In this document: in pieces, positions 7,400 to 34,512 of the stretch | Numbering within the stretch: position 1 is the stretch's first letter | How the letters are laid out: each line of letters opens with the position of its first letter | Translations under genes and position numbers: made by a program | Sequence record: NC_047806.1 | DNA: 44,018 bases | Reading direction: 5' to 3' (one strand) | Source: Escherichia phage vB_EcoP_B | The notes under the pieces: model-generated | The model's database searches: none | The model's input: the letters and a program-made list of their open reading frames with translations, nothing else | What the model was told of the DNA's origin: nothing

Positions 7400-7415
7400 G
7401 TCTCACACGTGAGAC
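7400..7415 (-). other. GTCTCAC..GTGAGAC palindromic hairpin element
   Basis: gtctcacacgtgagac; between gene end 7417 and promoter 7364-7384. Confidence 0.5.
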
Positions 7416-7416
7416 T

Positions 7417-7635
7417 TTATAAAACTGTGTTCACCTGAGCAATGTCATGCGCCGGAAGCGATACGCCGTGGCGTTTCCCCGTAGCTGGGTCGCTGTAGTT
7501 CACCACGTGCTGTCCGTCGCGCCAGATGTAGTGCAGGTCGGCATATGTGTCCCCTTCAGAGAAGGAGTGAAAAGTGTTGCCGCCAAGAGTTGTAATTCCT
7601 TTCTTGCAGTGCAGGGTTACGATTTGTACTTTCAT
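7417..7635 (-). CDS. hypothetical protein (72 aa)
   Basis: ORF track; ATG with TTAAGGAG SD. Confidence 0.5.
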   Translation of the reverse strand: MKVQIVTLHCKKGITTLGGNTFHSFSEGDTYADLHYIWRDGQHVVNYSDPATGKRHGVSLPAHDIAQVNTVL

Positions 7636-7644
7636 CCTTTCTCC

Positions 7645-8451
7645 TTAATATTCCGCGTCCTCATCCATCTCCGGTGCAGGAGTATCTTCTGCTTCAGGTA
7701 CTTCCTGTGGAACAGACTCACCAGTATCCAGAGATTTACGATTAGCTGGGGTAGCATCTTCCTCGTCTTTCTTCTTAGCCTTCTTCCATTCAGGGTCTTC
7801 TTCACGAGCAGCTTTGATAATAGCTTCTACGTGAGAGCCAGCAACAGACAGGTTCTTACCACGAGGTGTCTCGTTCAGGAAGTATTGACGTACCAAGTTA
7901 GCTGGGATGTCATCAAGGATTTCTTTGGTCAGCTTGTCGAAGGTGATATGACCTGTCATAGACAGACCTTCCTCTTCTACCTGAGCCAGTACAAGCTTCT
8001 TCAACTTATCAGGCATACCGCCAAAGCCTTTCCAGTTAACATACTTGAAAGTACCATCATCATTCTTGTCGCCAGAGCCAACCATAGTTGCAGTCAGACA
8101 TTCACCGATAAAATCATCGAAGCCACCCAGCAACTCTTTAGGGTCAACTGCATTCAGGAACTTAGTCAGTGTTGCCTTATCACCAGACTTCAGAGGCACA
8201 GCCATCCATTGTTCCATGCGAGAATCATCTTCATTCTTATCGTCGTCACCCATCAGGATAATCTTAACAAGAACAAAGTTTGCTGGCTTCTTAACTTCAG
8301 TGGTATTACCTTTCTTAAAGATATCTTGGAAGGAACCAACATGAATGATGCCAGAGATTACTGCTTCATGATCACCAACTTCAGGGTTCTTAAATACTTT
8401 ACCTTCAGCTTTAGTAACCTGAGCACCAAAATCAAAATCACCACGTGCCAT
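7645..8451 (-). CDS. single-stranded DNA-binding protein (gp2.5-like), 268 aa
   Basis: ORF track; long acidic C-terminal tail ending ...EMDEDAEY (acidic tail with terminal aromatic, as in T7 gp2.5); promoter at 8510-8530 upstream. Confidence 0.65.
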   Translation of the reverse strand: MARGDFDFGAQVTKAEGKVFKNPEVGDHEAVISGIIHVGSFQDIFKKGNTTEVKKPANFVLVKIILMGDDDKNEDDSRMEQWMAVPLKSGDKATLTKFLNAVDPKELLGGFDDFIGECLTATMVGSGDKNDDGTFKYVNWKGFGGMPDKLKKLVLAQVEEEGLSMTGHITFDKLTKEILDDIPANLVRQYFLNETPRGKNLSVAGSHVEAIIKAAREEDPEWKKAKKKDEEDATPANRKSLDTGESVPQEVPEAEDTPAPEMDEDAEY

Positions 8452-8509
8452 TTATTTAGTCTCCTATTGTTACACTACACAATCATAGGCAGAACTAAGC
8501 CGACCTATT

Positions 8510-8530
8510 GTTCTATAGTGTCCAGTAATT
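8510..8530 (-). promoter_or_regulatory. phage RNAP promoter (upstream of SSB)
   Basis: AATTACTGGACACTATAGAAC. Confidence 0.65.
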
Positions 8531-8828
8531 ACTTATGAACTACCTTAATACGTGCAATAGTATCGAGAGGGTAGACATAACTAACACATTCACCATCTTC
8601 AACCTCTTGTACATTTACACTAGCCATAGTGTCACAAAGTGAAAGGCTCAATTGATGACAAGTTTCACCTTGAGTAAACTCTGGACCACGATAGGCATCT
8701 GCTTGTTCCACAGTAGTGATTGCTGTATCGTCTTCTTTAGCCAGACGAGTGTGACCTGCAACTTTACGCTGCTCTAGATCACGAAAGATGATACCTACAT
8801 GTTTAGCTTGAATCACTTCTTCCATCAT
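8529..8828 (-). CDS. hypothetical protein (99 aa)
   Basis: ORF track; AAGGAG SD. Confidence 0.45.
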   Translation of the reverse strand: MMEEVIQAKHVGIIFRDLEQRKVAGHTRLAKEDDTAITTVEQADAYRGPEFTQGETCHQLSLSLCDTMASVNVQEVEDGECVSYVYPLDTIARIKVVHK

Positions 8829-8834
8829 AACTCC

Positions 8835-9212
8835 TTATTTAGTCAAGTTGTCCAGTTCTATTTCCAGCATAACAATCTCTTTCTTCAGGCTGTCAGATGC
8901 AGCTTGATTTACAAGAGCAATTGATGCCTTGTTCTCTTCAAATTCAGCTTTCAGGCTGTCACGCTCTTGCTGGTGACGTGCCAGCATATCTTCTACCTCT
9001 TTGACTTGACGTGCATTTAGTTCATCACGAGATGCATAGTAGCGGTTATGACAGTCAATCATTTGAGAACTACGATGTTCTTCAACTTTAACTTGCTCTG
9101 CCTGTACTGCTTCGATGCGAGCCTCAATAGCTTTGATAGCCTTGGACTTGAACTTATTAGCAAGACCACGAAAGTATTGAGCCACGAATACCAGAGTAGT
9201 TACCATAGACAT
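8835..9212 (-). CDS. hypothetical protein with N-terminal hydrophobic segment and coiled-coil-like remainder (125 aa)
   Basis: ORF track; ATAGGAG SD; promoter at 9278-9299 upstream. Confidence 0.5.
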   Translation of the reverse strand: MSMVTTLVFVAQYFRGLANKFKSKAIKAIEARIEAVQAEQVKVEEHRSSQMIDCHNRYYASRDELNARQVKEVEDMLARHQQERDSLKAEFEENKASIALVNQAASDSLKKEIVMLEIELDNLTK

Positions 9213-9277
9213 ATTTATATCTCCTATATTTATTTAATTACCTATACTACCTTATAAACCTAGATTACCTAGGCTTT

Positions 9278-9299
9278 CCTTCTATAGTGTCCAGTAAAT
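9278..9299 (-). promoter_or_regulatory. phage RNAP promoter
   Basis: ATTTACTGGACACTATAGAAGG. Confidence 0.7.
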
Positions 9300-9581
9300 C
9301 ATGTTAGACTAAATAAGTAGGAATAAGTTATTCATAAAGGCCACTCGTAAGTGACCTTGAGTATAACTCAGTCGTAGTTACCATCACAATCTGGGTCAAT
9401 GCCAGAGAAAGCCCAGAATACTACCATAAATAATATGACTCCAAGAATAATAAAAGATGCCTGCATCAATCGTAACCCTCCTCTTCATCAGGTATATCTA
9501 ATCGCATACTTCCATAGCAAGCAAGCATAAGGAATATAAGAAAGAAGGTGGAGAATAGGCAAACAATATCAAACCTGTCCA

Positions 9582-12128
9582 TCAGTGTGTTTCCTTCCAA
9601 CTTGCACCAATCTTATACTCACCTGCCATCGGACAACGCATCTTCAGGTACTGACCTGCCCAAGTCATTGCATCGGCAATGATATGCCCTGCACGGTGAT
9701 AACGACGCTGGCAATGAAGTACACCAGCATCAGCATCAACACTAACGAGATTTGCAGCAGACCACATACGTCCTTCAGAATCCACATGAACACGTTTCTC
9801 CTCTGCATCGAACACTGCTTTCACAGCAGCCTTCTCTGTTTCGAACCCTTCTAAGGTGAAAGGCAAGTCGTAGTTGAGATACAAGACCTCATCTTCAGGG
9901 ACTTCCATCTGGATTTCATCGTGCACGTTAGCTATACCGCAAGGGTTTCCCATGCTATCTAAGGCCACACCTTCCTTGCGCATCACTGCAAACGCTCTGA
10001 CCAATGCGTATTTCATACACAGAGAACCAGTCATCTGGAGTAGTACGTTAAGCATAGTGTGCTCTTTAAGTTCACCACCAGACATACGGATGCGACCCCA
10101 ATGACCATCAGGTGCTTGTAGGTAGCCAAACTTGTTACCTTGTGCGATAACATTCTCACGAAGACGTGCAAGAGATGGTAGTTCAACCTCAAATCTTGCC
10201 ACAACTTCCTCCATTTCTTCCTCAGTAACACCACATACTGCTGCAAGGTTAGCTATACCAGACCCATATAGGAAGGCATATATAAATGTCTTCGCCATGT
10301 CACGCTTAGGAAGACCAGCCTTCATTTGATTATGGGTGTGAATGTCACCATGCAGTACAATATCTTGATATTCAGGGTCATTCATGAAGTGAGACAGTAC
10401 ACGTAGTTCAAGACCAGCACCATCACAACCAAGGATTAGCTTACCTTTACCGGCTATGAATAAATCACGTAAAGGATACAAACCACGGGCAGGAATATTA
10501 ACCACGTTACGATGACGCATACGGAACGTAGAAGTTCCAATACTAATAGCAATAGCTGGCACACGCCATTCTCCGTCATCCTTGTCTGACGTAGGCCAGC
10601 ATCCGTACCTTTCGTAGTATTGCTGCGCATTGATTCCTAACTCCTTGTTAAATGCTACAGGTACAAGGCCGCGACACTTTCGTATACCAGCTTGCGAAGG
10701 CCACACCCCCTTCTGGTCGAAGGCTTCAACGTCACCACGGTTGAGGATCTGACCACGACGGGATACGAGTATGTACCATGCAGCGATACCCAAGCACCAA
10801 TCAGGGACTGTTTTACCTTCACGTGCGGCTCTCTCTTGCCATAAAGTAAGGGACTTTTCATTTATCTTCCCACTCCAAGGCTTGGGTAATACGCCATGCT
10901 CATCGAGATGCGCTTGCTCGGTATCGTTAAATTCAACACCTTTCCATCCATAATCATAGAGCACTTGCTTAACTGTATCCCTGTTACCCAAGGGAATCTC
11001 TTCGAAAGTAACAGGCGAGTAAGCGCCAATCCACTTGATGCTTGGCGTGTCATTACGGTTTCCTCTAAGGTGAGGAAAGTCTTTCTTGACGCTAGCCGAC
11101 CAATCACCAGACTTAGTAGTGACACTCCATACTGTCTTGCGATCTCCTCGTCTCTCTGCGTGAAGAAAGTGAGAGGGGTCAAGGACAGTAGGTATATTGT
11201 TGCTAGCTCCATACTCATTTGCGCGTTGGCATACTTCATTCTTTTCTTCCGGTTTAAAAGGTTTAGACTTGATACGCATAGGCATGTGCGGACGGAACGC
11301 TGCGACTGTCTCATCAATCTTAGCGTCCAATTCCTCGCATCGTGCTAATGCTTTATCTATATCCAGACGGAATCCACGCTCGGCCTGACGGCTCATCTCC
11401 AGCGCCACAATGGACTCCATGTGGAAGGCTGTCTCAATACCTAGGCCAGTGCGTTTATTCACGCCACGGCGTTTGTGCTCCGTCCATTCTCCGTTAAATA
11501 GCCAGAGGAATAGGTCACGGCCTATCGCCACGTCCTCGCGTACACGATGTACCATGTGGTCAGTTAGTTTAGACCAATCCTCGTTCTCCGGCTTATAACG
11601 GCCTATACGAATGCCGTGCGCCTCAATTGAGTGAGGGGCTACGTTACCCATGCCTTTGGCGTATGCTTGCGGAGGGAGGCGTCTATCGGGGTTTAACAGG
11701 CGACTCATGACCAGCGTATCCATGACGCGTACCGGACACAGGTCAGCGCGGAGTCTGCCCTTGCCGCGTCTCTCGGTATAGTTAAAGCCTTTCCAGATAT
11801 CAGGGAATGCTTTCTCAAATAGAAGGCCGTCGTACCCTAGGAAGTTCTGTGAGACGATGGCTTCGCAGTGCTTAAGGAAGTTAACACCGTCAACCAATGT
11901 TCCATCTTGATGGCCTTCCCATTCTTTTAGGCGTTCTCTTGCTTCAGGGTCACGCATCTCGTATGGGTCAAAGAAGAGGAACTCCTCTGTAGTAAGCAAA
12001 TCCATGCAGCAAATGATGTGCACATCTTCGCGGTGGCCATATCGGATAGCATCCAGCAGGCCTTTAGCCTCAGAATCCATCACTAAGATGCGGCCTTCTG
12101 CTTCCTTCTTCCAATCAATTGATTTCAT
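9582..12128 (-). CDS. DNA polymerase (family A, T7 gp5-like), 848 aa
   Basis: ORF track 9582..12161 trimmed to ATG 12126-12128 with GGAG SD; motifs GCDGAGLELRVLSHF, KTFIYAFLYGSG, VHDEIQMEV match T7 DNA polymerase motifs A/B/C. Confidence 0.85.
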   Translation of the reverse strand: MKSIDWKKEAEGRILVMDSEAKGLLDAIRYGHREDVHIICCMDLLTTEEFLFFDPYEMRDPEARERLKEWEGHQDGTLVDGVNFLKHCEAIVSQNFLGYDGLLFEKAFPDIWKGFNYTERRGKGRLRADLCPVRVMDTLVMSRLLNPDRRLPPQAYAKGMGNVAPHSIEAHGIRIGRYKPENEDWSKLTDHMVHRVREDVAIGRDLFLWLFNGEWTEHKRRGVNKRTGLGIETAFHMESIVALEMSRQAERGFRLDIDKALARCEELDAKIDETVAAFRPHMPMRIKSKPFKPEEKNEVCQRANEYGASNNIPTVLDPSHFLHAERRGDRKTVWSVTTKSGDWSASVKKDFPHLRGNRNDTPSIKWIGAYSPVTFEEIPLGNRDTVKQVLYDYGWKGVEFNDTEQAHLDEHGVLPKPWSGKINEKSLTLWQERAAREGKTVPDWCLGIAAWYILVSRRGQILNRGDVEAFDQKGVWPSQAGIRKCRGLVPVAFNKELGINAQQYYERYGCWPTSDKDDGEWRVPAIAISIGTSTFRMRHRNVVNIPARGLYPLRDLFIAGKGKLILGCDGAGLELRVLSHFMNDPEYQDIVLHGDIHTHNQMKAGLPKRDMAKTFIYAFLYGSGIANLAAVCGVTEEEMEEVVARFEVELPSLARLRENVIAQGNKFGYLQAPDGHWGRIRMSGGELKEHTMLNVLLQMTGSLCMKYALVRAFAVMRKEGVALDSMGNPCGIANVHDEIQMEVPEDEVLYLNYDLPFTLEGFETEKAAVKAVFDAEEKRVHVDSEGRMWSAANLVSVDADAGVLHCQRRYHRAGHIIADAMTWAGQYLKMRCPMAGEYKIGASWKETH

Positions 12129-12334
12129 AGATTGCTCCAAAGTATTTAACCCTATAACCAAGTCCTAATAAAGAATTAGGTGTTAGATGAGGATAGTTAT
12201 ATGCTAATTCATTGTGGTACTTATCAAACAAAGCAGCCTCTTTCTTAGACCTGCAATGCCCACACTTACCATCAATACGACTGCGATAACCTTTACCGCA
12301 AGAGCAAACCTTACTGACTTTAATAGCTTTCATA
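12115..12334 (-). CDS. small zinc-ribbon-like protein (about 72 aa)
   Basis: ORF track 12115..12360; better SD before internal ATG 12332-12334; CSCGKGY...CGHC cysteine pairs. Confidence 0.4.
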
Positions 12335-12456
12335 CATTGCCTCTGTTTCGTAGTAGTCATCTGAACGTTCAGGTTTTGAGTTCATTGAATCTTGGAAATC
12401 CCAATCAGAATCATAATCACGTGGCATAATGCACCTCCAATCAATATGATGAAAGG

Positions 12457-12474
12457 CTGTCTCACGTGTGAGAC
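12457..12474 (-). other. GTCTCAC..GTGAGAC palindromic hairpin element
   Basis: tgtctcacgtgtgagaca; intergenic. Confidence 0.5.
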
Positions 12475-12504
12475 AACCCTTTACTTATCGACTGCGTGTT
12501 ACAG

Positions 12505-12693
12505 TTAATTTCTGGCCCATGTATTTGCCTTGGTGTGGCTCCAAGTTGCCTCTTTGATAACTTGCTCGCGCGTCAGGCTATTCTTCTTTGCTTCAGCCAT
12601 AGTTAACTGTGCAAACAGGAAGGCTTGGTTAGTAATTTGTGCTTGCAGGTCTTCGTGACCATCAAACATCTTAAGACTGTGTTTATTTTGCAT
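12505..12693 (-). CDS. hypothetical protein (62 aa)
   Basis: ORF track; ATG start, weak SD. Confidence 0.35.
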   Translation of the reverse strand: MQNKHSLKMFDGHEDLQAQITNQAFLFAQLTMAEAKKNSLTREQVIKEATWSHTKANTWARN

Positions 12694-12901
12694 GTTTCAC
12701 CATAAAGCTGCCGATTACATTAAACTCCTCACGGAACTCTTTTTCAGTCCAATGACCGAAAAGTTCCATCTGAAAACTTGCACTAAGACTGGCACCTATT
12801 AATGCAAACCCCTTTGAAGTACCATATGTCTTGACACCATCTGGTGCTACAACTGCATAGCATTTATGAGGTCCACGCATATAAATTAATACCTTAGTCA
12901 T
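12683..12901 (-). CDS. hypothetical protein (72 aa)
   Basis: ORF track; strong SD CTAAGGAG. Confidence 0.5.
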   Translation of the reverse strand: MTKVLIYMRGPHKCYAVVAPDGVKTYGTSKGFALIGASLSASFQMELFGHWTEKEFREEFNVIGSFMVKHAK

Positions 12902-12911
12902 GATTAACTCC

Positions 12912-13595
12912 TTAGATATTCACGTAGGTTTCTTCAGTAACGATAGGTAGGTACAGTAATTCTTCACCATTTAAGATGTGAAGACCCTTCAACCCTTGCT
13001 TACGAATAATACCTTCTATAGTGTCGGCGAAATGATTATTAGCTACACGCCGTGGTGTGCCATGCTCTGTGATTGCATGGTCAACATCCAAGATTCGCAC
13101 AGGCACATTTGGGTGCATCATAGCTTCACCAATTTTCACCATAGCTTGCCCTGTGGATTTACCCAATGCACGAGTATTGAACTGTGTAACACCTAATGCA
13201 GTGCCACATTGCTTAATCATTTCACTTTGAGTCTTACCAGTGATTACATTGCGACGCTCTTTCTTGAGTGTGGTTTTCTTTTCTGCCATGTACTCTGCTA
13301 GTGTTTGAGGACCAGCACCATAATAAAGAGGAGCTAGGAAATTCTTAAGCATCTGGCGAGCACATTTATCGCAAACCTCATCATGTATGCACTTACATTG
13401 ATTGTTTATCTCTACAATCTTTTCAAGATATTTATGTGCTGTTTTCTTGTGGTAAGAAGCCTTAATACCATCCTCATATTCTACATGATACATGTTCTCA
13501 CTTATACGATCCACTACACCACGGCAACGATAACGACGTGAGGCTTCATTGATGTTACGAACATAATCACCTGCATTCAATACTAATTTATACAT
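12912..13595 (-). CDS. hypothetical protein (227 aa) with Cys cluster
   Basis: ORF track 12912..13670 trimmed to ATG 13593-13595 with GGAG SD (the track's N-terminal extension covers an intergenic hairpin); CKCIHDEVCDKC cluster. Confidence 0.5.
   Translation of the reverse strand: MYKLVLNAGDYVRNINEASRRYRCRGVVDRISENMYHVEYEDGIKASYHKKTAHKYLEKIVEINNQCKCIHDEVCDKCARQMLKNFLAPLYYGAGPQTLAEYMAEKKTTLKKERRNVITGKTQSEMIKQCGTALGVTQFNTRALGKSTGQAMVKIGEAMMHPNVPVRILDVDHAITEHGTPRRVANNHFADTIEGIIRKQGLKGLHILNGEELLYLPIVTEETYVNI
13013..13033 (-). promoter_or_regulatory. phage RNAP promoter-like sequence inside coding region (divergent -17..-8)
   Basis: ATTTCGCCGACACTATAGAAG. Confidence 0.4.
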
Positions 13596-13635
13596 AATCA
13601 ATCTCCAGTTATTTAATATATACTTAATAAGAGCC

Positions 13636-13653
13636 TGTCTCACATATGAGACA
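13636..13653 (-). other. GTCTCAC..GTGAGAC palindromic hairpin element
   Basis: tgtctcacatatgagaca; between helicase stop and next gene. Confidence 0.5.
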
Positions 13654-13673
13654 AGCCCCGATAAATACACTAA

Positions 13674-15662
13674 TCAGAACTCACTTTCTTCATCGAAGTT
13701 AGTCTCTTCTATAGTGTCTGGTAAATCAGGTACTTCTTGTTGCCTTGCTTCACCTGTATCAAATGACTTAGTACGAGCTTGTGGTTCCATTAAACGTCCG
13801 GTTTGAATGTCACCCTTGAGCATGACCTTGGTTCCAGTGTAGATACCTTGGTCGCGGTCTTTGACACATGAGATGTACGTGGTAGTCCTTTCATCAAGCG
13901 TTTCAGCTCTTGTATTACGCTCAATCCCCAAGGCGTAAGATGCCCAGAATCCGATAGCGCCTGAGCCTCGGAAGTCAGAAAGGATAACTTCGCCACCTTC
14001 TTCGTGTTGGGTACGGTTTGCCGGAGGACGTGTAAGGTGAGAGACAAGGAAAATCGTAACCGCATGTCGATCTTTGATAGTACCAATTCGTTTGACGCAT
14101 TCATCAAGTGCACCAACCTTCCCACCAAAAGCACGCTCATCTAATTTAATCCCCGTTAAGTTATCAATGATGATATTAGAAATGCCCATAGCCTCAAACT
14201 CTAGGCAAGTTTGCTCTACCTTCTCCATAGAATAGTCACCCTCTAGGTCAGCTACAAACAGCTTCCCTGTATCAGCTACATAATCAATGGCGGCATTAGC
14301 CTCTTCCTCAGTATAGTCGAACACCTCACGGTATCCGTCTTCTTTCGGGTCATTGGTTGGCGGTAACTCAATGCGCTTATCAATCCACTTACCGATAAAA
14401 GCACGGGACACCTTGACCATCGGGTCTTCTGTAGAAATGATGCCTACAGATTCACCATGTTCTTCAATAAGATGTTTAACCACTTCGCGGAGGAACTCAG
14501 TCTTACCTACACCAGAGCCTGCACCTACAATGATAAGCTGGTTCTTACGAATACCTAGCGTTACCTTGTTCAGCTTAGGCCAAGGCCATGATAGCCCTTG
14601 CTCTGGACGTGCAGCCTTGAGCTTATCCCTTTGAGATGCGATAGATTTAATATGGCTACCAAAGACTTCATCAGATGACTTGGCATTAAACCAAGCATCA
14701 ACAAACTCTTTAGCCTTGCCAGCCATCAATGCCTTGTTAGCATCTTTGCAACCAGAAGGGTATTCAAGGATATAGGATTTGCCAGGAAACAGGCGAGCCG
14801 CTTGCTGATTCTGCTTCTGCCCTACCTCATCTCCATCAAAACCCCATATAATCTTCTTAAATTGGGCGATGTGTTCACGGTTCTGTACTATCTCTTCAAG
14901 GCAAGACTCACCTTTATTGACAGACCATACATGGTAAGGCTGGCCTTCCCACTTAGTACCCTTGGCAGAATCAAGGAGCATTTGCTGTGCTGCTAGTGCA
15001 TCCAGTTCGCCGCCGACAATGAGCAAGTGATCCTTTCGTCTTCCCTTGTCTAACACGTGAGACAAAGTATTCATCCCGAAAAGATCTTGCATACCAAAGA
15101 GTTTACCTAAATGACCAAACTTAAAGTCTTTAGGTAATGTGCGACACTTAGCGCCTACTAGTTCACCTTTCTCGAAGCGTGGATAGTAATGCCGTGAGAC
15201 TCTACCCTCTTCATCGTGTCCGACACGTACATCATACAATGCGCAAATGTCGCCGCGAATGTGTCGGGAAACAAGATTCTTACGCTTAAGCGTGAGGAAC
15301 CATTCAACATCAAGTTTCCACTCTGCTTCTTGGTCTGCCCTTTCTTGCTCATTCATGACCTCCCATCGGTCTTTCATACGCATGCCACCAAGTGCGATGG
15401 CGCGTAACTTAGGGTCGCTTATCTTCCCTTCCTTCTCCATCTCTTTGAATTGAGAAGGTGTATATTTGATATTGCCAGTAATAGGCAACTCGGTGATCTC
15501 GATGCCACCATCTGGCTTATGATAGTAAGGCTTGCCGTTATCGTGGAAATGACCACGGTTACAATAGCCAGCACCATCATCAAATATCATGAGATGATTG
15601 CCGGATTTATCGTGTCCATTCTTCTGGCAGGCAGGGCACGGGATGTTATTAATAATAGCCAT
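13674..15662 (-). CDS. bifunctional DNA primase/helicase (gp4-like), 662 aa
   Basis: ORF track; N-terminal zinc ribbon CPACQ...CNRGH, Walker A GAGSGVGKT, acidic C-terminus ending ...FDEESEF; AAGGTG SD. Confidence 0.85.
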   Translation of the reverse strand: MAIINNIPCPACQKNGHDKSGNHLMIFDDGAGYCNRGHFHDNGKPYYHKPDGGIEITELPITGNIKYTPSQFKEMEKEGKISDPKLRAIALGGMRMKDRWEVMNEQERADQEAEWKLDVEWFLTLKRKNLVSRHIRGDICALYDVRVGHDEEGRVSRHYYPRFEKGELVGAKCRTLPKDFKFGHLGKLFGMQDLFGMNTLSHVLDKGRRKDHLLIVGGELDALAAQQMLLDSAKGTKWEGQPYHVWSVNKGESCLEEIVQNREHIAQFKKIIWGFDGDEVGQKQNQQAARLFPGKSYILEYPSGCKDANKALMAGKAKEFVDAWFNAKSSDEVFGSHIKSIASQRDKLKAARPEQGLSWPWPKLNKVTLGIRKNQLIIVGAGSGVGKTEFLREVVKHLIEEHGESVGIISTEDPMVKVSRAFIGKWIDKRIELPPTNDPKEDGYREVFDYTEEEANAAIDYVADTGKLFVADLEGDYSMEKVEQTCLEFEAMGISNIIIDNLTGIKLDERAFGGKVGALDECVKRIGTIKDRHAVTIFLVSHLTRPPANRTQHEEGGEVILSDFRGSGAIGFWASYALGIERNTRAETLDERTTTYISCVKDRDQGIYTGTKVMLKGDIQTGRLMEPQARTKSFDTGEARQQEVPDLPDTIEETNFDEESEF
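13706..13726 (-). promoter_or_regulatory. phage RNAP promoter inside 3' end of helicase gene
   Basis: ATTTACCAGACACTATAGAAG. Confidence 0.6.
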
Positions 15663-15880
15663 TAGTTCACCTTAATAGTTCTGGGTTGGTAAGAGTCAGC
15701 TTTTCTACGCTTAGAGATAAACTTCTTTGCATCCCTTTCGGTGCAGAAGATAGCCTCTGTATCAGTATAGCCAATAGGCATCATACACGTGACCCATATT
15801 AAGCCTAATACTTTACGTTGCACTATGTAGCACTCTTGCCCGTGACTATTTAAACAGGTCTTGATTCTGTATTTAGCCAT
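15662..15880 (-). CDS. hypothetical protein (72 aa)
   Basis: ORF track; ATG 15878-15880; stop overlaps helicase start (TAATG). Confidence 0.45.
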   Translation of the reverse strand: MAKYRIKTCLNSHGQECYIVQRKVLGLIWVTCMMPIGYTDTEAIFCTERDAKKFISKRRKADSYQPRTIKVN

Positions 15881-15883
15881 AAC

Positions 15884-16012
15884 TTAGAACCCCCACGCAG
15901 CGCGTTTAGATGCACGGTCACGGACAGGTTTATTCAGCTTCTTGCCTTTCTTCTGCCCTTCTTCCATGTCAAAACGGTTAGCTTTACGGGTCATCTTCTC
16001 AAAGTTACGCAT
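15884..16012 (-). CDS. gp1.1-like small basic protein (42 aa); not in ORF track (<60 aa)
   Basis: ATG 16010-16012 with GGAG SD just downstream of promoter 16038-16060; translation MRNFEKMTRKANRFDMEEGQKKGKKLNKPVRDRASKRAAWGF resembles T7 gp1.1 (MRNFEKMT..., from memory). Confidence 0.5.
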   Translation of the reverse strand: MRNFEKMTRKANRFDMEEGQKKGKKLNKPVRDRASKRAAWGF

Positions 16013-16037
16013 GGTTAAATCTCCAAAGTGAGTTAAT

Positions 16038-16060
16038 CTTATCTATACTGTCCGGTAAAT
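16038..16060 (-). promoter_or_regulatory. phage RNAP promoter variant (upstream of gp1.1-like ORF)
   Basis: ATTTACCGGACAGTATAGATAAG (C-to-G change in core). Confidence 0.5.
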
Positions 16061-16065
16061 ACGAA

Positions 16066-16081
16066 GTCTCACATGTGAGAC
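16066..16081 (-). other. GTCTCAC..GTGAGAC palindromic hairpin element
   Basis: perfect 16-bp palindrome gtctcacatgtgagac, 5 nt upstream of promoter 16038-16060. Confidence 0.55.
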
Positions 16082-16084
16082 AAC

Positions 16085-16223
16085 CTAGGTCTGCCCTTCC
16101 TCTAAGTGGTAATAAGAGGAAGGAAGAAGGTAATAGGTATTCCTAGATAACCTATATAACCTTTAATACCTATTACTTCCTTTATATCCTTTATCTTCCC
16201 TTTCTTTCCCGTCTCCGACGGCT
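16085..16223. other. AT-rich repeat-containing spacer between tandem phage promoters; candidate primary replication origin
   Basis: non-coding, AT-rich, repeated AGGAAG/TATTACC/AGGTTAT motifs; flanked by promoters 16224-16244 and 16038-16060 (T7 origin sits in the analogous place). Confidence 0.35.
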
Positions 16224-16244
16224 ATCCTATAGTGTCCGGTAAAT
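16224..16244 (-). promoter_or_regulatory. phage RNAP promoter (first after RNAP gene)
   Basis: ATTTACCGGACACTATAGGAT. Confidence 0.6.
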
Positions 16245-16247
16245 AAA

Positions 16248-16263
16248 GTCTCACATGTGAGAC
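16248..16263 (-). other. GTCTCAC..GTGAGAC palindromic hairpin element
   Basis: perfect 16-bp palindrome, 3 nt upstream of promoter 16224-16244. Confidence 0.55.
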
Positions 16264-16298
16264 ACGTTTTATGTTAATGAAATGTTACAGGTAGTAGG

Positions 16299-16327
16299 TA
16301 AAAGAAAGCCACTCCCGAAGGAATGGC
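16299..16327 (-). terminator. intrinsic terminator after RNAP gene (early terminator candidate)
   Basis: RNA GCCAUUCC-UUCG-GGAGUGGC (8-bp stem, UUCG loop) followed by CUUUCUUUU. Confidence 0.55.
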
Positions 16328-16336
16328 CTATTAATA

Positions 16337-18964
16337 TTATGCGAAACAATAGTCTGAAACTAAGATTTCGTTAAGGTCAAACTCCCCTTGCTCTGGTACT
16401 TGGATTCCGGTGTCTACTAACCAACGCTCTTCGTGCACATCTAGCAGGTTTTGCAGGGCATTATGGTTTTGATACATCTTAACCATTTCTTCCCTTAAGC
16501 TATCCCGCAGGTCTGCGGTACGTCCTGCATGAGTACCGAAAGAATCATGGATGACTGCAATGGATGTAATACCTTTATCCACTAGGTCACATACAGTCAG
16601 AATCAGGTGGCTAGCATCGTGACCATGGACGAAGTTAGGAGCAGCCGCACCCATCATTGCCGTTTCATCAACTACATCTGTTTCAATCTGGAGACTCATC
16701 TTGATTTCACCCATCAAGCAAGTGGATACGCGGAGCATATCTGTAGCCATTATCTTTTGTTGCAAGATGAAGCCAGTTGGTAAGGGATATTCTAAGCCTT
16801 CGTTTCTTTTAGCTGCGAAACGTGCAAGCTGACGAATCATTTTCATTGCCACTATAGGAGCTTTAACCACTTCCGAGATAGAAGGCCAGATTAAAGCTGT
16901 CATATAGTTATAAGCTGCGCTAGGTGTCAGGCTGTCTTTACGGTCATTATCAAAAGGGTGTACAGGATTGGCGGTACGCCCTTCCGCAATAGCCCGTTGG
17001 GCCTCTTTTTCTTCTAAATCAACGATATAATCAATCACTGACTCACGGCAGGTTAGACGTGTGCTGCCATAAGGTAGTGTCATTACGGGCTTTTTGGTCA
17101 GGCCGCGAGTGATTCCTATCATATCCCACGCACTAGCCATACTACGCAGTTCCGCACCTGTTAAAGTCACGCTGCCAGAAGTGAAGGTTTCCGCATCCTC
17201 TGCATTCATGTATGCATAATTCTTCTGAATTACTACCTGCGCAACGGCACCATAAATATCTTGAGGAGAGTCAGAGGGCTTAAGGTTTACTGCTTTCGCA
17301 CCTACTGCATCGCGTAGCATAGCACTGTAGTGCTGGATACCAGAACAACTACCATCTTGATGGACTGGGAGGTGCGTCATGAATTGGTCTTGCGTGCCTT
17401 CATCCAGTGCATCCAGATAACGCGCATATTCAAAGCACCATGCAAGGAAGCCGTAAGGGGAGTCGGCATTTACCCATTGAGTGAAGGTCAGCGGATCCGC
17501 TGCAATGTCGCGGCACATGTCTTGAAATTCACCATCCAGCACGTTAGCGGTGCGCACGTCAAAAGTTTTCTTATCCCAACCCCAGTTATTAGCCCCGTTC
17601 ACCAAAAACCACTTAAGCGCCTCAGCGCTATCAAGACGCTGCCCTTCGGTAAAACGGAGCAATGCCTTGCCTAAGTCGTTTGATTGCGGAGAGAGCGTGC
17701 TAGATTGCGCGTAGACGCGGCTGCGGCTGTCCAGAGCATACACGAAGTATATTGCGTCAAATTGGCTGTATTTACGGGCCTGCCCTACCATGCGGACGGT
17801 CGCCGCCGATTTGCTGCCGCGCTTAGTCTCAGCGGTATACAGCTTGGTGCATTCACCTTTCCAGTTGATGAAGGCTTGCCATTGTTCCGGTGTTAACATT
17901 TCTTTCAGTTCACGTCCTCGCAGGTGCTGGAACTCTAACGGCACCGGATTAGCTGGCTTGTTCTCACGGTCGATGAGTGGTTTAAAGGAAGGTACACCAT
18001 AGCCGAGGTCTAGACGTATAACGTCCTCCACAACCTGTAAAACCTCTTTATTAACCTGCCACTTAGTTGCCTGCAAAGCGTTAACAGCCTTATAAACGGC
18101 TGGCATTTGCTTTTTGGTCAGCTTGCGGACGTGCTCACGATTGCCTTTTACCAGACGAATACGGCTTGCTACTTTCTCAGTATGAAACCCACCGTTAAAA
18201 GGTGATACCCAAGGGCGGGGAGGTATAACGCAAGGTGCATAGGCAGGGCTGAGCTGCGCTACATGTTCCTTAAATGCAGTTATCCACTCTCCAACATGTT
18301 CACTGGTCTGTAAATAGTAAACACCATGCTTTCCGCCGTTAGTGCGCAAGGTACGAAGGAAGACAGGTTGACCATTGAAGAATACACTATTCTCCAATAT
18401 TTCGAGCAAGGTCATACCGATTTGCAGCAAGGTGTCTTTAGGCCATGCCTCCCAACGGGAGAAATCCGCGTCACGGTCAGCAACAGATTTCTCAGCTACT
18501 ACCGCTACGTTGTGCGCATGACGATAAGATTTAGTCTTGCTAGCCTTAAGCGACTTCTTCACTTTCTCAAAGTACTTAGCTGCGTGACCTTCCAGCTTGC
18601 TAAAACGTACTTGGTCTTCGATGCGGTCCGCTACATTCATAGCGATGGCTTGTAAGGTAACGTCTGTATTCAGCATGTCCATAACGATTTTCATGGTGAT
18701 ATATGCTGCTACTTCGTTTTCTACGCAGTTAATGAAAGCTAATGCACGCGGTGCGCGGCCTCTTTTACCTTCGTACTCTTCCTTATAAGCCTGAATACCT
18801 TCCGCCATAGGTGCGATTAGTTCGGACAATAAGCGGCGATTCCATGCCGTGTCTGATTCATTACCGGATGCAATCTGGCGTTGTTGGTCCGCTTCAAAGC
18901 GACGGATACCGCCGTTAAACATTTCTTCTTCAAGTTGAAGTTGAATAGCGTGTAGGTCTTGCAT
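16337..18964 (-). CDS. single-subunit DNA-directed RNA polymerase (T7/SP6-like), 875 aa
   Basis: ORF track; [18 protein letters not shown] and C-terminal ...DYCFA match T7 RNAP catalytic and foot motifs; length close to SP6-group RNAP; AGGAG SD. Confidence 0.9.
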
Positions 18965-27788: not shown

Positions 27789-27810
27789 CCTTCTATAGTG
27801 TCCGGTAATT
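27789..27810 (-). promoter_or_regulatory. phage RNAP promoter (overlaps terminase stop)
   Basis: AATTACCGGACACTATAGAAGG. Confidence 0.65.
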
Positions 27811-30184: not shown

Positions 30185-30193
30185 TGCACCTCC

Positions 30194-31156
30194 TTACACT
30201 AGTTGTAACTTCATACTTACGACACACTCAGGCAATGGCTCACTGAAAGTGATAGTAGAGCCTACGATTTCATAAGTATTATTAGGTTGATACAGTCCAT
30301 CCAAATATACATCAAGACGTTGGAAAGCCGTTACAATGTCGATAGATTGTGTACCTTCACTCACTGCTTGTGTAAAGAGGATAGTATCCGCACTTGTAGG
30401 TGGGGTTAAGCGACTACCGATAAGCACATAAACTTCATCTCCAGCCTGTAATGGCTCGGACAGGGTTATAACATCATACCCCACTGATACTGCACCTGCT
30501 AGCTCATGCTGGAATACACCGTTTATAAACACCATAGCATCATCAAATGAGTAAGGTGGTCGAATGATTTGCTCTCCACCGGAGGCGACCATATACCAAG
30601 GAATAGTGCGATGAGATACACCAGACACCATTCCTCTCTTAATACCAGCAATCTCTATATCTTGTGCAGAGTTCCAATCAGTATGCTTCTTGTCGATAGC
30701 ATCTAGCTGTGATTTATTTACTGCATCTTTTGGATTCTCACCATCAGCTAGGTCAGTAATCTTATTGCCGCCCCAGCTTACATTCTGCTTAATGAAGTAC
30801 CCTTCTGGATAAAACCCATCAAGTAACTCCTGTGTAATCTCCAGTATATGAATGAAAGAACCATTTAAAGACTTCATATCCAAGGTAACACCACGGTCAA
30901 ACTCAGCGTATGGATATTCTTTTTGTACTTCCCTTCGAATACGGAACTTCAAACCTGCAACGGGTGCTACATCAAAAGTGATTTGATGCGTACCAGTTAA
31001 TTGCCAGCCAGATGTAATCTCAATCCAAGTGTTACCTTGAAGAGATTCCACTATCACATCTGAGGCACGAAGATAGCCTTTATCCCTGCCAGCAAAGCTA
31101 AAGGGATAGGTTACTTGCGTACCGTTGGCTATATGTTCTGTGAAAGTATAACTCAT
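30194..31156 (-). CDS. tail-fibre-like adaptor protein, about 320 aa
   Basis: ORF track 30194..31159 (TTG) trimmed to ATG with GGAGGA SD; N-terminus resembles tail-attachment domain of T7 gp17; no receptor-binding-sized C-terminus. Confidence 0.6.
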   Translation of the reverse strand: MSYTFTEHIANGTQVTYPFSFAGRDKGYLRASDVIVESLQGNTWIEITSGWQLTGTHQITFDVAPVAGLKFRIRREVQKEYPYAEFDRGVTLDMKSLNGSFIHILEITQELLDGFYPEGYFIKQNVSWGGNKITDLADGENPKDAVNKSQLDAIDKKHTDWNSAQDIEIAGIKRGMVSGVSHRTIPWYMVASGGEQIIRPPYSFDDAMVFINGVFQHELAGAVSVGYDVITLSEPLQAGDEVYVLIGSRLTPPTSADTILFTQAVSEGTQSIDIVTAFQRLDVYLDGLYQPNNTYEIVGSTITFSEPLPECVVSMKLQLV

Positions 31157-34100
31157 CAATCCTCCAGTTCATCTAAGCCATAACGCAATGCGTTCTGGAT
31201 TCCTATTACATTAGTTAGAGGCACTAAGCGTAAAGCCCTACGTGCCACATCTACACCTTCTGTATCACCCTCTGCATATTTAGTTATAGAATCTGCTAAA
31301 CGATATGCATCTTGACCAACACCTACTAGTGGTATTTGGTCTATCAAACCCTTAGTCTGAAAGCCAGCCTCATAACGGGATTGTACTAACTCAGAAGGTA
31401 GAACACCTAGGCCACCCAAGAAATCTCCACCTAGACTAAATACAGCAGTTGTACTCATCATACCCATTGCACCAAAGGCCAACCCTTTAGGCGATAACTT
31501 CTCTTCCAAATATTCATCTTGGTCTTCTCGCCCAATAGAGTTCACATAGGCTTTTGCCGCATACACTATTGAACCCAAAGCAAACCCGTAAGCTGTCTTC
31601 TTAGCAAGACCAATTTTATCGTGGCGAATCCCTCGACCAAATTGCTTCTCACCAGATACAAGAGAGAATGACTTAAGCTGTGCAAATGTCTTACCTAGTG
31701 CTTTGTTCATCCAGATACCTTCATCACCAATGAAGTTACGTTGGATAATTAGACCTGACTTACGACGAATAGCATTAGCTAAAGTTTCACCCATGGCATA
31801 AGGCATTGTATCAAAGCCAAGCAAGCCAGAACCTTTAGAGTTAGCATCATAGTGCTTCTGTAGGTTAGTCATGAACTCCTGAGTAAGACCAAGTTCCTCC
31901 AGTTTCTTCTGAGGAATAATCTTCTTGCCTTCAAGGTGGTCAATGAAAGACAAAGCTATTTGCCTATTGGTCATTCGCTCCAGAGAACCCTGTGCCATGC
32001 GGAAGAGTGATAGGTTGGTTTGAGCACGACGTATTGAGTTCATGGATTGGTCAAAGTGAGCCATCATCCCTCTTACTGTGGTTACATCACCAAACTCATC
32101 TGGACGTGCACCCTTGGTTGTTAGCCAGTTATCCTCACCAATGTAACCTACCATCCTCTCTACTTCTGCCAAGTTCTTATCTCGGAAGAAGCCATCACCG
32201 CTCCGCAAAGCCTTAGATGTAAAGCGGAATTGCTTACCTAAAGCTATAGTGGTTGCAGCAATACCAAACTCACCCATGAAGTTAGCAAGTTCACCTAGCT
32301 GTGCGAAGCCCATCTGACCTAAGCGAAGTACACCTGTAATGTCACGACCACGACGCAGCATTTTAGTAGATAAAGCCTGTGGGTCTGCATCGATAGATTT
32401 ACCCATAATTAAGCGAAGCCCTTCTCGCATCTGACGGATTTCTTCATCAATAGCCAGACCCGCTGCTTCATCTTTCTCTTTCAATTTAAGTCGCTTCTTT
32501 AACTCTTCAATCTTCTCTTGTGCCTTCTTGTAATCAGGCTCTGATTGACGAATCTTAGCAGACTCCGCTTCAAATTGTGCGTGTGCTTTTGTATCTTTAG
32601 CTGCATTTCGTGCATTTCGCTCTACAAGGTCAATTGCATTAAGTGCAGCCTGATAGGTAGAGAAACCTTGACGAGCCAAGGCAGCACCACCTGCCGCTTC
32701 CTTCATGTAGTTATCTGTTAACTCTTCCACGTTAGTATTCATAAAGTCACGCATACGAATGCCATTGTACTCTTGAGTAACATCTAAGCCTAAACTCATC
32801 TTAGCTCGGTTAGAGATATTATCTCTGGTTTCTTTATTATCAAGAGCTTCTACCATCTTTTCAATTTCTTCATCACTGAAGCCTGCCTTGCGCATTATTG
32901 CTTCATACTCTGCTTTAGTCTGACCAGACATAGCCTTTTCGAAACTCATACGTCCTGTCAGAGTGGCATCCACAACACGGTTTACTTGTGCACGTGCAAT
33001 CTCATCAGCCACTTCCTTTGGAACCTTACGAGAACCATTCTGGTATGCACGAGAGAATAGCTCAATGATGTCCTCCTTATCGTGCATACTAAATTGACGA
33101 CGAGCCTTCATACTGTCAAAAATATCAGGCATGTACTTATCATCTGCTTTAACCTTTTCAAACCCAGCTTCACCAGAGCGCTTCCGTAAAGCTAAGGCTT
33201 CTCGATACATAGCTTGCTGCCCCCCTGCTGCCATACGGATAGACTTAGGCGTAGACTCATCCATACCGATGCGTACAGCTTCCCATACCTTCTCATTATA
33301 TTGCTGCACATAGTGAGAGTTAGTATGACCTGCAACCGGATTGATATTATTCTCTTTGAGCCATAAATCGAACCCATCATTGAAACGGTTCATATCAGCA
33401 GATTTCAGACGATTCAAGTTAGTATTCTGCATGAGACTAGCCGATGCCTTCTGTGCACCTAAGCCTTGCGGGGACTCAAACAGGCGAGCACCAAGACCAC
33501 GTACACTTGCATCCTGAGAGGAGTGCACGACAGTACCAAGGGCAGACATAGTTCCGGCCCAGCGGCGAGGTGTCATATCAATTGCATTACCTTCCCGCTG
33601 TAGGGTTTTCAGCAAATCTTCACCTTTGCTAGAGATATCGAATGCACCCTCAGTGAGTACCTCTTCACCCTTAACACGCATCGCACCGATACTGTCATCA
33701 GCAACAGCACGCACATAGCGGTCCCCTGCGTCTGCACTGCGCACAATGCTTGCCGCTCTGTCATCCCCTTGCTCACTGAGCTTAGTGGCCCTACCACGCG
33801 CTACAGCGCCGATAACGCCACCCATCGCCATGCCCGAGCCTAGTGCCACCATAATGTCATCTAAATCACGAGTCATGTCACCTTGGACCAATACGGACTC
33901 AATAGCGGCATTACTCACGCCAGCGGCGATAGCACCACGCACAGCACGGCCTACAAGCCCAACTTTAGCTGCACCACCGGTTGGAATAGAGGCAACCCAG
34001 CCAACAGGGTCGAGCACAGCAGCACCAATCGTTGCCACAGAGCCAACCCAGCCAGCCTGCGCAATACGTTTATTACGCTCAAGGTCTTCATCAGCATTCT

Positions 34101-34464
34101 GAATACGGAAGTTCAATTCATCCTCAGAACGAACACCCTCAATGATTGTCTGCATCATATCCGTGCCGTATTTGAAGCGAAGAGCTTCACGTTGCTCCGG
34201 TTGGATTTCAAAGTCAGGTTGAGGTGTGAAATCAGCAGTGGCACGGTCATACCATCGCTTACCTCCAAATGCCAACCATTCATTCTGGAAGGCAGCACCT
34301 ACAGCACCTAAGATGTCCGCATCAGCTTTGGCTTCAAGAACTTGCTCTTGTAACTCATTACGCTGGCGTATCGTAGGAGCCGATACCGGAGCCGCCTCAA
34401 TAGAAAACGGCTCAGGAGTAGACTGGACATATCCAGCCCAATTAGTCTTAATATCTTGTTCCAT
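31156..34464 (-). CDS. internal virion (ejection) protein, large (1102 aa)
   Basis: ORF track; GGAGGA SD; size and position after two other internal proteins as for T7 gp16. Confidence 0.7.
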   Translation of the reverse strand: MEQDIKTNWAGYVQSTPEPFSIEAAPVSAPTIRQRNELQEQVLEAKADADILGAVGAAFQNEWLAFGGKRWYDRATADFTPQPDFEIQPEQREALRFKYGTDMMQTIIEGVRSEDELNFRIQNADEDLERNKRIAQAGWVGSVATIGAAVLDPVGWVASIPTGGAAKVGLVGRAVRGAIAAGVSNAAIESVLVQGDMTRDLDDIMVALGSGMAMGGVIGAVARGRATKLSEQGDDRAASIVRSADAGDRYVRAVADDSIGAMRVKGEEVLTEGAFDISSKGEDLLKTLQREGNAIDMTPRRWAGTMSALGTVVHSSQDASVRGLGARLFESPQGLGAQKASASLMQNTNLNRLKSADMNRFNDGFDLWLKENNINPVAGHTNSHYVQQYNEKVWEAVRIGMDESTPKSIRMAAGGQQAMYREALALRKRSGEAGFEKVKADDKYMPDIFDSMKARRQFSMHDKEDIIELFSRAYQNGSRKVPKEVADEIARAQVNRVVDATLTGRMSFEKAMSGQTKAEYEAIMRKAGFSDEEIEKMVEALDNKETRDNISNRAKMSLGLDVTQEYNGIRMRDFMNTNVEELTDNYMKEAAGGAALARQGFSTYQAALNAIDLVERNARNAAKDTKAHAQFEAESAKIRQSEPDYKKAQEKIEELKKRLKLKEKDEAAGLAIDEEIRQMREGLRLIMGKSIDADPQALSTKMLRRGRDITGVLRLGQMGFAQLGELANFMGEFGIAATTIALGKQFRFTSKALRSGDGFFRDKNLAEVERMVGYIGEDNWLTTKGARPDEFGDVTTVRGMMAHFDQSMNSIRRAQTNLSLFRMAQGSLERMTNRQIALSFIDHLEGKKIIPQKKLEELGLTQEFMTNLQKHYDANSKGSGLLGFDTMPYAMGETLANAIRRKSGLIIQRNFIGDEGIWMNKALGKTFAQLKSFSLVSGEKQFGRGIRHDKIGLAKKTAYGFALGSIVYAAKAYVNSIGREDQDEYLEEKLSPKGLAFGAMGMMSTTAVFSLGGDFLGGLGVLPSELVQSRYEAGFQTKGLIDQIPLVGVGQDAYRLADSITKYAEGDTEGVDVARRALRLVPLTNVIGIQNALRYGLDELED

Positions 34465-34494
34465 AGTTCCTCCATAGTGCCTATCATAAAGACC

Positions 34495-34512
34495 TGTCTC
34501 ACATGTGAGACA
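34495..34512 (-). other. GTCTCAC..GTGAGAC palindromic hairpin element
   Basis: perfect 18-bp palindrome tgtctcacatgtgagaca between internal virion protein genes. Confidence 0.55.

Follow-up and report, generated by a model that had tools for sequence, protein, structure and literature searches.

The genome of Escherichia phage vB_EcoP_B (NC_047806.1), analysed here as one stretch of 44,018 nt (the window), carries eight copies of a 16-bp palindrome with GTCTCAC/GTGAGAC arms, and our analysis points to two layers of function for this element. At three gene junctions the palindrome caps a two-part mRNA hairpin of the RNase III type, and at all its positions the 16-mer itself would be read by a sequence-specific factor; we put the probability of this combined explanation at about 0.5. 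The window shares 98% identity with coliphage K1E (Vectrevirus, Molineuxvirinae, SP6 group), the record is circularly permuted, and the genes lie on the minus strand, which is thus the sense strand. The original prediction, made from the letters of the sequence, had described a family of recurrent palindromes at gene junctions. This observation is correct, and it is stronger than first thought. Two points are new: the modular relation between the palindrome and the RNase III signal, and the finding that the palindrome family is ancient, wider than this genome and equipped with arms that change in a coordinated, lineage-specific manner, extending even to single codons.

A search for GTCTCACNNGTGAGAC with at most two mismatches returned 8 sites in the window as opposed to 0.15 expected, and none of 100 dinucleotide shuffles of the window (0/100) reached 8, which bears out the claim of a recurrence beyond chance (Table 1). 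The isolated half-site GTCTCAC is found in 5 copies with about 5.5 expected in total, so that half-sites show no excess elsewhere in the window. Both the list of open reading frames (ORFs) of the window and the K1E annotation indeed place the six main copies between genes, and the two copies said to lie 3-5 nt upstream of phage promoters do so, at 3 nt (16248) and 5 nt (16066) on the minus strand. Three intervals given earlier (12457-12474, 13636-13653 and 34495-34512) contain the same cores with a flanking T/A but are off by 1-2 nt. Two further copies, at 15048 and 21918, had been located correctly but regarded as degenerate; since they occupy the same positions in other genera, they are true members of the family and not chance look-alikes.

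Table 1. Palindromes and associated features of the window. Mismatches refer to the palindrome search.
Feature	Position	Strand	Mismatches	Context
Phage RNA polymerase promoter (third), ATTTACTGGACACTATAGAA	7365-7384	minus		downstream of palindrome 7400
Bare palindrome, sense GTCTCACGTGTGAGAC	7400-7415		none listed	1 nt past stop codon of gp17-like ORF; 15 nt upstream of third phage promoter
R1.1-like hairpin without palindrome, ACUCAAGGUCACUUACGAGUGGCCUUUAUGA	9321-9373	minus		about 20 nt upstream of promoter 9280-9299
Two-part RNA hairpin	12430-12503	minus		upstream of DNA polymerase gene block; top 6-7 bp formed by palindrome 12459-12474
Palindrome	12459-12474		none listed	
Two-part RNA hairpin	13605-13683	minus		helicase/gp10 junction; top formed by palindrome 13637-13652
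Palindrome, sense GTCTCATATGTGAGAC	13637-13652		1	one U.G pair
In-gene palindrome	15048-15063		1	primase/helicase ORF, codons 200-205 (L S H V L D); right arm GTTAGAC
Second promoter after RNA polymerase gene	16041-16060	minus		
Bare palindrome	16066-16081		none listed	5 nt upstream of second promoter after RNA polymerase gene
First phage promoter	16225-16244	minus		
Bare palindrome	16248-16263		none listed	3 nt upstream of first phage promoter
gp6-like conserved early protein	19031-19912	minus		just upstream of RNA polymerase gene
Left-end palindrome, sense GTCTCACACGTTAGAC	21918-21933		1	about 70 nt upstream of first host-type promoter (TTGACA)
Two-part RNA hairpin	34465-34541	minus		gp35/gp36 junction (two large internal virion protein genes); top formed by palindrome 34496-34511
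Palindrome	34496-34511		none listed	

Conservation in relatives, which had been proposed as a check, was found in all SP6-group phages examined, and beyond. K1E, K1-5 and KAW1A4500 carry the same copies at the same positions as the window, and SP6, three Klebsiella phages, two Proteus phages and Pectobacterium phage PP1 have palindromes at homologous positions, the helicase and left-end copies among them. In these phages the arms are GTCCAAC/GTTGGAC (CA type), but SP6 and UAB_Phi78 mostly have GTCTAAC/GTTGGAC, with a TA left arm and a CA right arm. The GTCTCAC/GTGAGAC arms of the window (TC type) are found also in Erwinia and Pantoea phages, and Vibrio phage BD5 has GTCTAAC/GTTAGAC (TA type). 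A wider survey, in which a search seeded with the helicase alignment added 56 loci, extends the family to phages of Pseudomonas, Vibrio and Pectobacterium and from metagenomes whose helicases are only 43-56% identical, and which harbor 4-8 copies per 19 kb. The arms of Pseudomonas phage Achelous (Colwellvirinae) are identical to those of the window, and further arm types are GTCTACA/TGTAGAC, GTCTGAC/GTCAGAC and, in Pectobacterium phage PP99 (Gajwadongvirus), GTCTAGT/ACTAGAC. Within a genome nearly all copies are of a single arm type, and between lineages both arms differ in a compensating fashion. The contexts also recur from phage to phage: between a terminator and the first promoter, just before a promoter or ribosome-binding site, and at the left end. 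Mobile palindromic repeats (REP- or MITE-like) and targets of homing endonucleases were considered and rejected, as the positions are fixed from Vectrevirus to the Vibrio and Pseudomonas phages, and the in-gene copies arise through codon choice instead of insertion. Among the relatives examined, the GTC..GAC family is absent from Aeromonas phage P220, a related uncultured phage (L184/L185), and T7. About six copies of another palindrome, AGCTT-ACAG-AAGCT, and close variants of it are located near the left end of L185 (165-1650) and L184 (705), and may represent an equivalent element with a different sequence.

The copies within genes are particularly informative. At the helicase copy a perfect right arm, GTGAGAC, would create an in-frame TGA stop codon, which accounts for the GTTAGAC found there. 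SP6, Klebsiella, Pectobacterium and Vibrio phages also have a copy in this slot, and there CA or TA arms go along with the peptide L-S-N-V-L-D (Asn, AAC), as compared to L-S-H-V-L-D (His, CAC) in the window, and the synonymous positions of the Ser and Leu codons follow the arm type of the lineage (TCC..TTG, TCT..TTA or TCT..TTG). The helicase copy is invariant in 15 Vectrevirus genomes, while 13 of 80 flanking positions vary. As codons and residue changes track the arm type and the copy is invariant within varying flanks, the nucleotide sequence of the in-gene copies is under selection itself. PP1, Nifs112, phiEa100, BD5 and UAB_Phi78 carry the same pentapeptide, with the same codons, at a conserved site within their RNA polymerase gene, and several phages have it in the ligase or kinase region.

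At three junctions the palindrome forms the tip of a considerably larger RNA structure. Folding of the minus-strand RNA, another check that had been proposed, yielded two-part sense hairpins at 12459, 13637 and 34496 and only a 6-bp stem at the bare copies. With 40-nt flanks, the folding energies of the sense versus the antisense strand were -29.3 versus -19.8 kcal/mol for the hairpin at 12430-12503, -27.3 versus -11.3 kcal/mol for that at 13605-13683, and -29.1 versus -23.2 kcal/mol for that at 34465-34541. All three consist of a 13-14-bp upper stem with a tetraloop, a small internal loop and an 8-10-bp lower stem. An alignment of 12 sequences of the slot in front of the polymerase gene block comprises 24 pairs with 97.9% of the cells paired and 9 pairs changed on both sides; the corresponding figures for 8 sequences of the gp35/gp36 slot are 24 pairs, 98.9% and 7 pairs. 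For neither alignment did any of 500 shuffles (0/500) match the paired cells, the double-changed pairs or the covariation score, and slid controls gave 29-47% pairing and 0-2 double-changed pairs. The slot at the helicase/gp10 junction is occupied in more than 20 genomes; in the only deposited record that was checked for it, that of Proteus phage Pm5460, the counterpart of this hairpin is annotated as a rho-independent terminator.

Directly below the palindrome, a U-A pair followed by a U.G pair is present in 12 of 12 sequences at the pre-polymerase slot and in 7 of 8 at the gp35/gp36 slot. E. coli RNase III requires at least 11 bp between cleavage site and loop and makes use of a distal box with canonical UA/UG pairs (Pertzev and Nicholson 2006, PMC1540722). 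The junction hairpins display such UA/UG pairs together with an upper stem of 13-14 bp, and have more than 11 bp between the loop and the presumed cleavage region. They were further compared with the RNase III sites R1.1, R1.3 and R4.7 of T7, whose coordinates on the T7 record we take to be those of Dunn and Studier 1983; the position assumed for R1.1 agrees with the annotated phi1.1A/phi1.1B promoters of that record. When folded, the three T7 sites read ACUCAAGGUC, then the top, then GGCCUUUAUGAUUGA, and the same flanks surround the junction palindromes: the 34496 site has ACUCAAGGCUU..AGGUCUUUAUGAUAG where T7 R1.1 has ACUCAAGGUC..GGCCUUUAUGAUUGA. The flanks CUCAAGG...CUUUAUGA of the 34465-34541 hairpin agree with those of R1.1, and those at 12430-12503 are similar to R4.7 and R1.1. 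Since the flanks match T7 R1.1/R4.7 in both sequence and architecture, the hairpins at 12459, 13637 and 34496 are likely to be RNase III processing signals. The earlier suggestion of RNase III-type hairpins therefore holds for these three copies, based on sense-strand fold, covariation and T7-like flanks, but not for the five bare copies, whose 6-bp stem falls below the 11 bp required (PMC1540722). A scan of the whole window against Rfam 15 at the gathering threshold gave no matches.

The palindrome is, however, a module separate from the RNase III signal, as the same genome contains an R1.1-like hairpin without it, at 9321-9373. This hairpin is almost identical to T7 R1.1, has a T7-like top and is identical in K1E, K1-5, KAW1A4500 and SP6. 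The junction palindromes are placed above a complete R1.1-like unit, as an extra cap. Conversely, the gp35/36 junction of Vibrio phage BD5 carries a bare palindrome without RNase III flanks.

Five of the eight copies in the window are bare: three are located 3-15 nt upstream of middle promoters, one within the helicase gene and one at the left end. They form a 6-bp stem of about -7 kcal/mol with the same stability on both strands. A copy is present at 3 of about 12 phage promoters in the window, and the promoters beside 16248 and 16066 share the consensus ATTTACCGGACA(C/G)TATAG (minus strand). The palindrome at 16248 follows the early terminator hairpin at 16306-16329, itself located after the RNA polymerase gene, by about 40 nt, and the order terminator-palindrome-promoter is repeated in phiEa100, ZK1, PP1, BD5 and Achelous. 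The core at 16066 is invariant in 14 Vectrevirus genomes, with 9 of 40 upstream positions varying. The 7400 slot is occupied also in SP6, Klebsiella, Proteus, Pectobacterium and Erwinia phages, and the left-end copy is present in K1E, K1-5, SP6, Klebsiella, Proteus, Pectobacterium and Erwinia phages, Achelous and PP99.

Some further features were observed next to the bare copies. Between palindrome 7400 and its promoter, the spacer at 7385-7399 repeats the promoter core in inverted orientation and can pair with it in the hairpin GGUGUCCGG/CUGGACACU. The inverted arrangement spans 7371-7394 on the minus strand (GGTGTCCGG / CTGGACACT), and in SP6, PP1 and the Proteus phages the inverted core changes in step with each phage's own promoter sequence; it is a promoter-including hairpin or an anti-promoter element. 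A few bases past the start of the first middle transcript, at 16209-16221 (minus strand), lies the hairpin CCGUCGGAGACGG, which is preserved by compensating changes in other genera (CCAUCGAAGAUGG in PP1, CCUUCGGAGAAGG in ZK1) and is probably a 5' stabilising stem-loop. Adjoining the left-end palindrome, at about 21934-22072, a segment of about 50 nt that ends in a run of about 20 T is present in two copies about 85 nt apart, and K1E and K1-5 have only a short T run at the corresponding position. A terminal repeat that was collapsed or duplicated may explain this arrangement, as may an error in assembling the circularly permuted record.

How the 16-mer might be read was addressed using 243 distinct sites across phages. 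All two-base centres are purine-pyrimidine (R-Y; 163/163, namely GT 57, AC 53, AT 40 and GC 13), and 54 of 58 three-base centres are A-N-T. As AC is about as frequent as GT, the orientation relative to transcription is irrelevant. Wobbles in the arms of bare copies are split 19 versus 14 between the strands, i.e. without bias, as opposed to 5 versus 0 in junction copies. The most widespread copies are those upstream of all promoters or directly after the early terminator. The strictly two-fold symmetry of the site and the concerted changes of its arms speak for a reader that recognises the sequence, probably a DNA-binding protein acting as a dimer. The former suggestion of an operator for a dimeric protein is now the most likely reading of the 16-mer itself, in view of the symmetry, the lack of strand bias, the copies in poorly transcribed regions and the coordinated half-site changes, although no reader was found.

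The explanation that we favour may be worded as follows. A family GTCY..AC - RY - GT..RGAC of 16-17 bp at fixed positions would serve two layers of function. In the first, which the data largely show, the palindrome constitutes the apical 6-7 bp of a sense-mRNA stem-loop at three junctions, the lower part of which (AAGG.../...CCUUUAUGA, the invariant U-A and U.G pairs, an internal loop and an 8-10-bp stem) corresponds to a T7 R1.1/R4.7-type signal; host RNase III would most likely cut here, separating the cistrons and leaving a protective 3' hairpin. In the second, the 16-mer would be a separate module, dispensable for RNase III, whose sequence is recognised by a diffusible factor; this factor would most likely be encoded by the phage and be a protein of two-fold symmetry (a dimer) acting on duplex DNA. 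This layer would cover the bare copies beside middle promoters and behind the early terminator as well as the helicase and left-end copies, while hairpin tips and tolerant codons would simply be places where a compact genome can fit a site. Middle transcription control or origin-proximal events would be our best guess for the role of the factor. Recognition by a symmetric DNA-binding protein, judged from the site sequences, has a chance slightly short of even, whereas reading of the 16-mer as RNA or as a single strand appears somewhat unlikely.

Several observations weigh against such a reader. Versions of 16 and 17 bp coexist in one genome (Proteus phages and the phage L173), a variation in length that a hairpin accommodates better than a rigid dimer site does, and thus a flexible dimer would be needed. 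In the SP6 lineage a U.G arrangement occurs in 6-7 copies in a single orientation, suggesting single-strand pairing; in the ZK1 lineage three copies show it the other way round. K1-5 (L002, 9570) and the uncultured or metagenomic phages L141 (3222) and L143 each carry one CA-type copy in a TC-type Vectrevirus genome, so strict type matching is not essential, at least at junctions. These lone copies (GTCCAAC..GTTGGAC) have Vectrevirus-typical flanks, which suggests short mosaic exchange with CA-type phages at conserved junction sequences. Alignment columns that separate TC-type from CA-type phages were absent (0) from the polymerase, the primase-helicase, DNA polymerase, endonuclease VII, the gp18-like and gp25-like proteins and the small terminase, and a presence/absence search revealed no ORF confined to palindrome-bearing phages.

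Type-correlated columns do occur elsewhere. One or two each were found in the ligase, the exonuclease and the gp6-, gp16- and gp17-like proteins, and larger numbers in gp36 (26), gp35 (13) and the large terminase (9), the gp36/gp35 homologues being located at 31156-37477 of the window; the numbers in the other conserved proteins are 0-3, and the columns of gp35, gp36 and the terminase probably reflect mosaic ancestry of the late region. Sequence searches of the conserved small proteins against Pfam, PHROG and PDB were uninformative, and the Pfam and PHROG scans revealed no ParB-like protein. The gp6-like early protein consists of a helical N-terminal domain, an acidic low-complexity linker and a predicted long helix, and its C-terminus bears a highly conserved LGLS..A..K..A.REL motif that is J-domain-like without HPD. 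As a candidate reader it yielded only weak, sub-threshold DUF3102 matches, in orthologues, and a poor AlphaFold model (pLDDT, the predicted local distance difference test, 50.8); the matches listed in a homologue search included relatives at at least 90% identity only. Co-evolution with the phage RNA polymerase was rejected, as phages of one and the same palindrome type have different promoters and no type-correlated columns (0) occur in the polymerase. RNase III was likewise rejected as a type-specific reader: the cap lies above the distal box, the palindrome-free site has a T7-like top, and the enzyme is expected to be near-identical among enterobacterial hosts although their phages carry different arm types. 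Stop codons beside the palindrome, although conspicuous by eye, are not enriched (60 versus 59.5 in shuffled flanks).

The coexistence of 16- and 17-nt forms is readily understood as a change in loop length if all copies are RNA punctuation hairpins of the sense transcript, serving an RNA-binding factor, a nuclease or the stabilisation of 3' ends, with the DNA palindrome as a mere footprint and RNase III flanks added later at some junctions. The junction copies clearly are RNA structures, the U.G of the SP6 lineage stands at arm position 4 and always on the sense strand, the palindromes of BD5 and L173 lie 0-3 nt before a Shine-Dalgarno sequence, and Shine-Dalgarno-like motifs are modestly enriched downstream (24 versus 13.7). 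We nevertheless consider this explanation unlikely. The bare hairpin is weak (about -7 kcal/mol) with no strand difference in stability, the loops CACG and CGUG are used equally under a centre rule that is symmetric to reverse complementation, and bare copies accept C.A as often as U.G on the sense strand. The asymmetry in the ZK1 lineage runs opposite to that in SP6. In addition, little sense RNA is expected at copies that follow the early terminator or lie upstream of every promoter, and promoter-adjacent copies are outside the transcripts begun at those promoters. The family might also have no dedicated reader at all, the copies being ordinary hairpins (RNase III tops or weak terminators) that are kept alike by descent and by gene conversion or recombination. 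Mosaic exchange would account for the mixed arm types of K1-5 (9570), L141 and L143, copying would produce the tendency of asymmetric variants towards one orientation per lineage, and about 30 nt of similar flanks could support conversion at the junctions. This appears improbable, since the bare and in-gene copies have nothing beyond the 16-mer in common, a length that does not suffice for homologous conversion to be efficient, a type switch within a gene costs an amino-acid change and fixes synonymous sites, all 16 positions are constrained including the would-be loop bases, and the cap is dispensable for RNase III.

Hairpins of single-stranded DNA during replication, serving as primase-helicase loading or priming signals near origins in the manner of plasmid single-strand initiation sites, would be identical from both strands and would fit the copies beside the left end and beside the two promoters that follow the RNA polymerase gene; these positions correspond to the primary and secondary origins of T7. 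The asymmetry of the left-end copy of SP6, opposite to that of the copies on its right, would fit as well, but this rule is broken in K44, PP1 and the ZK1 lineage, the primase-helicase lacks type-correlated residues, and the late-junction and in-gene copies have no obvious link to an origin, which leaves this idea highly improbable. A strand switch at the replication fork fits the SP6 asymmetry and fails in the same lineages (K44, PP1 and ZK1). The invariant outer GTC of the palindrome resembles the T7 primase site; SP6 primase is reported (Tseng et al. 2000) to recognise 5'-GCA-3', not GTC. A primase site was therefore rejected, both on this account and by the lack of type-correlated columns in the primase-helicase. 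A general role of the palindromes in pausing or terminating the RNA polymerase of phage or host, as had also been suggested, is very improbable. At positions 7000-17000 a lenient scan picked out two of them, 16248 and 16066, as weak hairpins of terminator-like form with T-rich tails, and the Pm5460 label at the helicase junction points in the same direction; yet these tails, found at the two copies after the RNA polymerase gene only, are the upstream AT tracts of the promoters, the other six copies lack a U-rich tail (AAAUCGG, AGCCUUUCAU, AGGCUCUUAU and AAGGGAAG being examples), and termination inside the helicase and RNA polymerase genes would be harmful. A class I terminator consists of a hairpin and a U-rich tail, and a class II signal of HATCTGTT and a T-rich stretch (PMC11347151). 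HATCTGTT has 7 matches in the window with 6.0 expected, none of them beside a palindrome. In the terminal region, TATCTGTT at 22375-22382 (minus strand, the sense strand) matches the class II pause/termination signal. T7 uses this signal at its concatemer junction.

If the 16-mer has a reader of its own, SP6-like and related phages would possess a second code beside their promoters, composed of a sequence-specific reader and 8-10 palindromes per genome; we regard this wider proposal as tentative, with the odds rather against it. It may extend to Molineuxvirinae, Colwellvirinae, Gajwadongvirus and uncultured relatives, with reader and sites co-evolving by half-site switches in the manner of ParB-parS or Noc-NBS, and could serve middle transcription, origin-proximal events or genome entry. 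The putative reader could be a conserved protein without assigned function or an internal virion protein. It would add a regulatory layer to phages thought to be run almost wholly by their polymerase, and provide a clean natural example of a site and its reader switching specificity together. The SP6 group is the source of a standard laboratory RNA polymerase, and many of its members are candidates for phage therapy against K1/K5 E. coli, Klebsiella, Salmonella, Proteus and Erwinia. This fixed set of short sites has been maintained from genus to genus, in the helicase even at the price of a replaced amino acid, and anyone who recodes, refactors or reboots such a genome must either keep the sites or alter them on purpose. 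Moreover, four probable RNase III processing signals can be annotated. The full-text literature searched contained no mention of the main-type 16-mers, although an earlier description in the genome papers of Dobbins 2004 or Scholl 2004 is possible, and no discussion of RNase III sites, repeated palindromes or transcript-end data for SP6-group phages was found in it.

Among known systems, the class I intrinsic terminators of T7-type polymerases share with the palindromes the hairpin and, at two copies, a following T-rich stretch; in contrast, most copies lack the defining U-rich tail (PMC11347151), the hairpin is short and weak, and copies reside in essential genes. The T7 sites R1.1, R1.3 and R4.7 are alike in their two-part architecture, the CUCAAGG.../...CCUUUAUGA flanks, the set of U-A and U.G pairs, the sense-specific folding of the junction hairpins, and the placement at gene junctions and beside phage promoters. 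They differ in having an upper stem of about 10 bp, compared to 13-14 bp here, and in lacking the additional 6-7-bp lineage-specific cap that the palindrome provides at the junctions; furthermore, five of the eight palindromes have no RNase III-like flanks. The parS and Noc-binding sites of ParB-family dimers are 16-bp palindromes, some of them in genes, with coordinated lineage-specific half-site changes. The palindromes described here resemble them in their 16-bp two-fold symmetry, in a number of about 8-10 copies per genome and in the presence of in-gene copies. They are distinct in sequence and in the existence of 17-bp versions, no ParB-like protein emerged from the Pfam and PHROG scans of the small conserved proteins, and these lytic phages give no sign of spreading or partition functions. 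Finally, operators of dimeric repressors are likewise short perfect palindromes just upstream of promoters. We know of no repressor in the SP6 phage group, and unlike typical operators the palindromes accompany only 3 of about 12 promoters, at distances of 3-15 nt, and occur also in genes and at the tips of RNA hairpins. The symmetric R-Y centre rule, on the other hand, is shared with such operators and resembles that of sites at which a protein reads the shape of the DNA rather than its bases.

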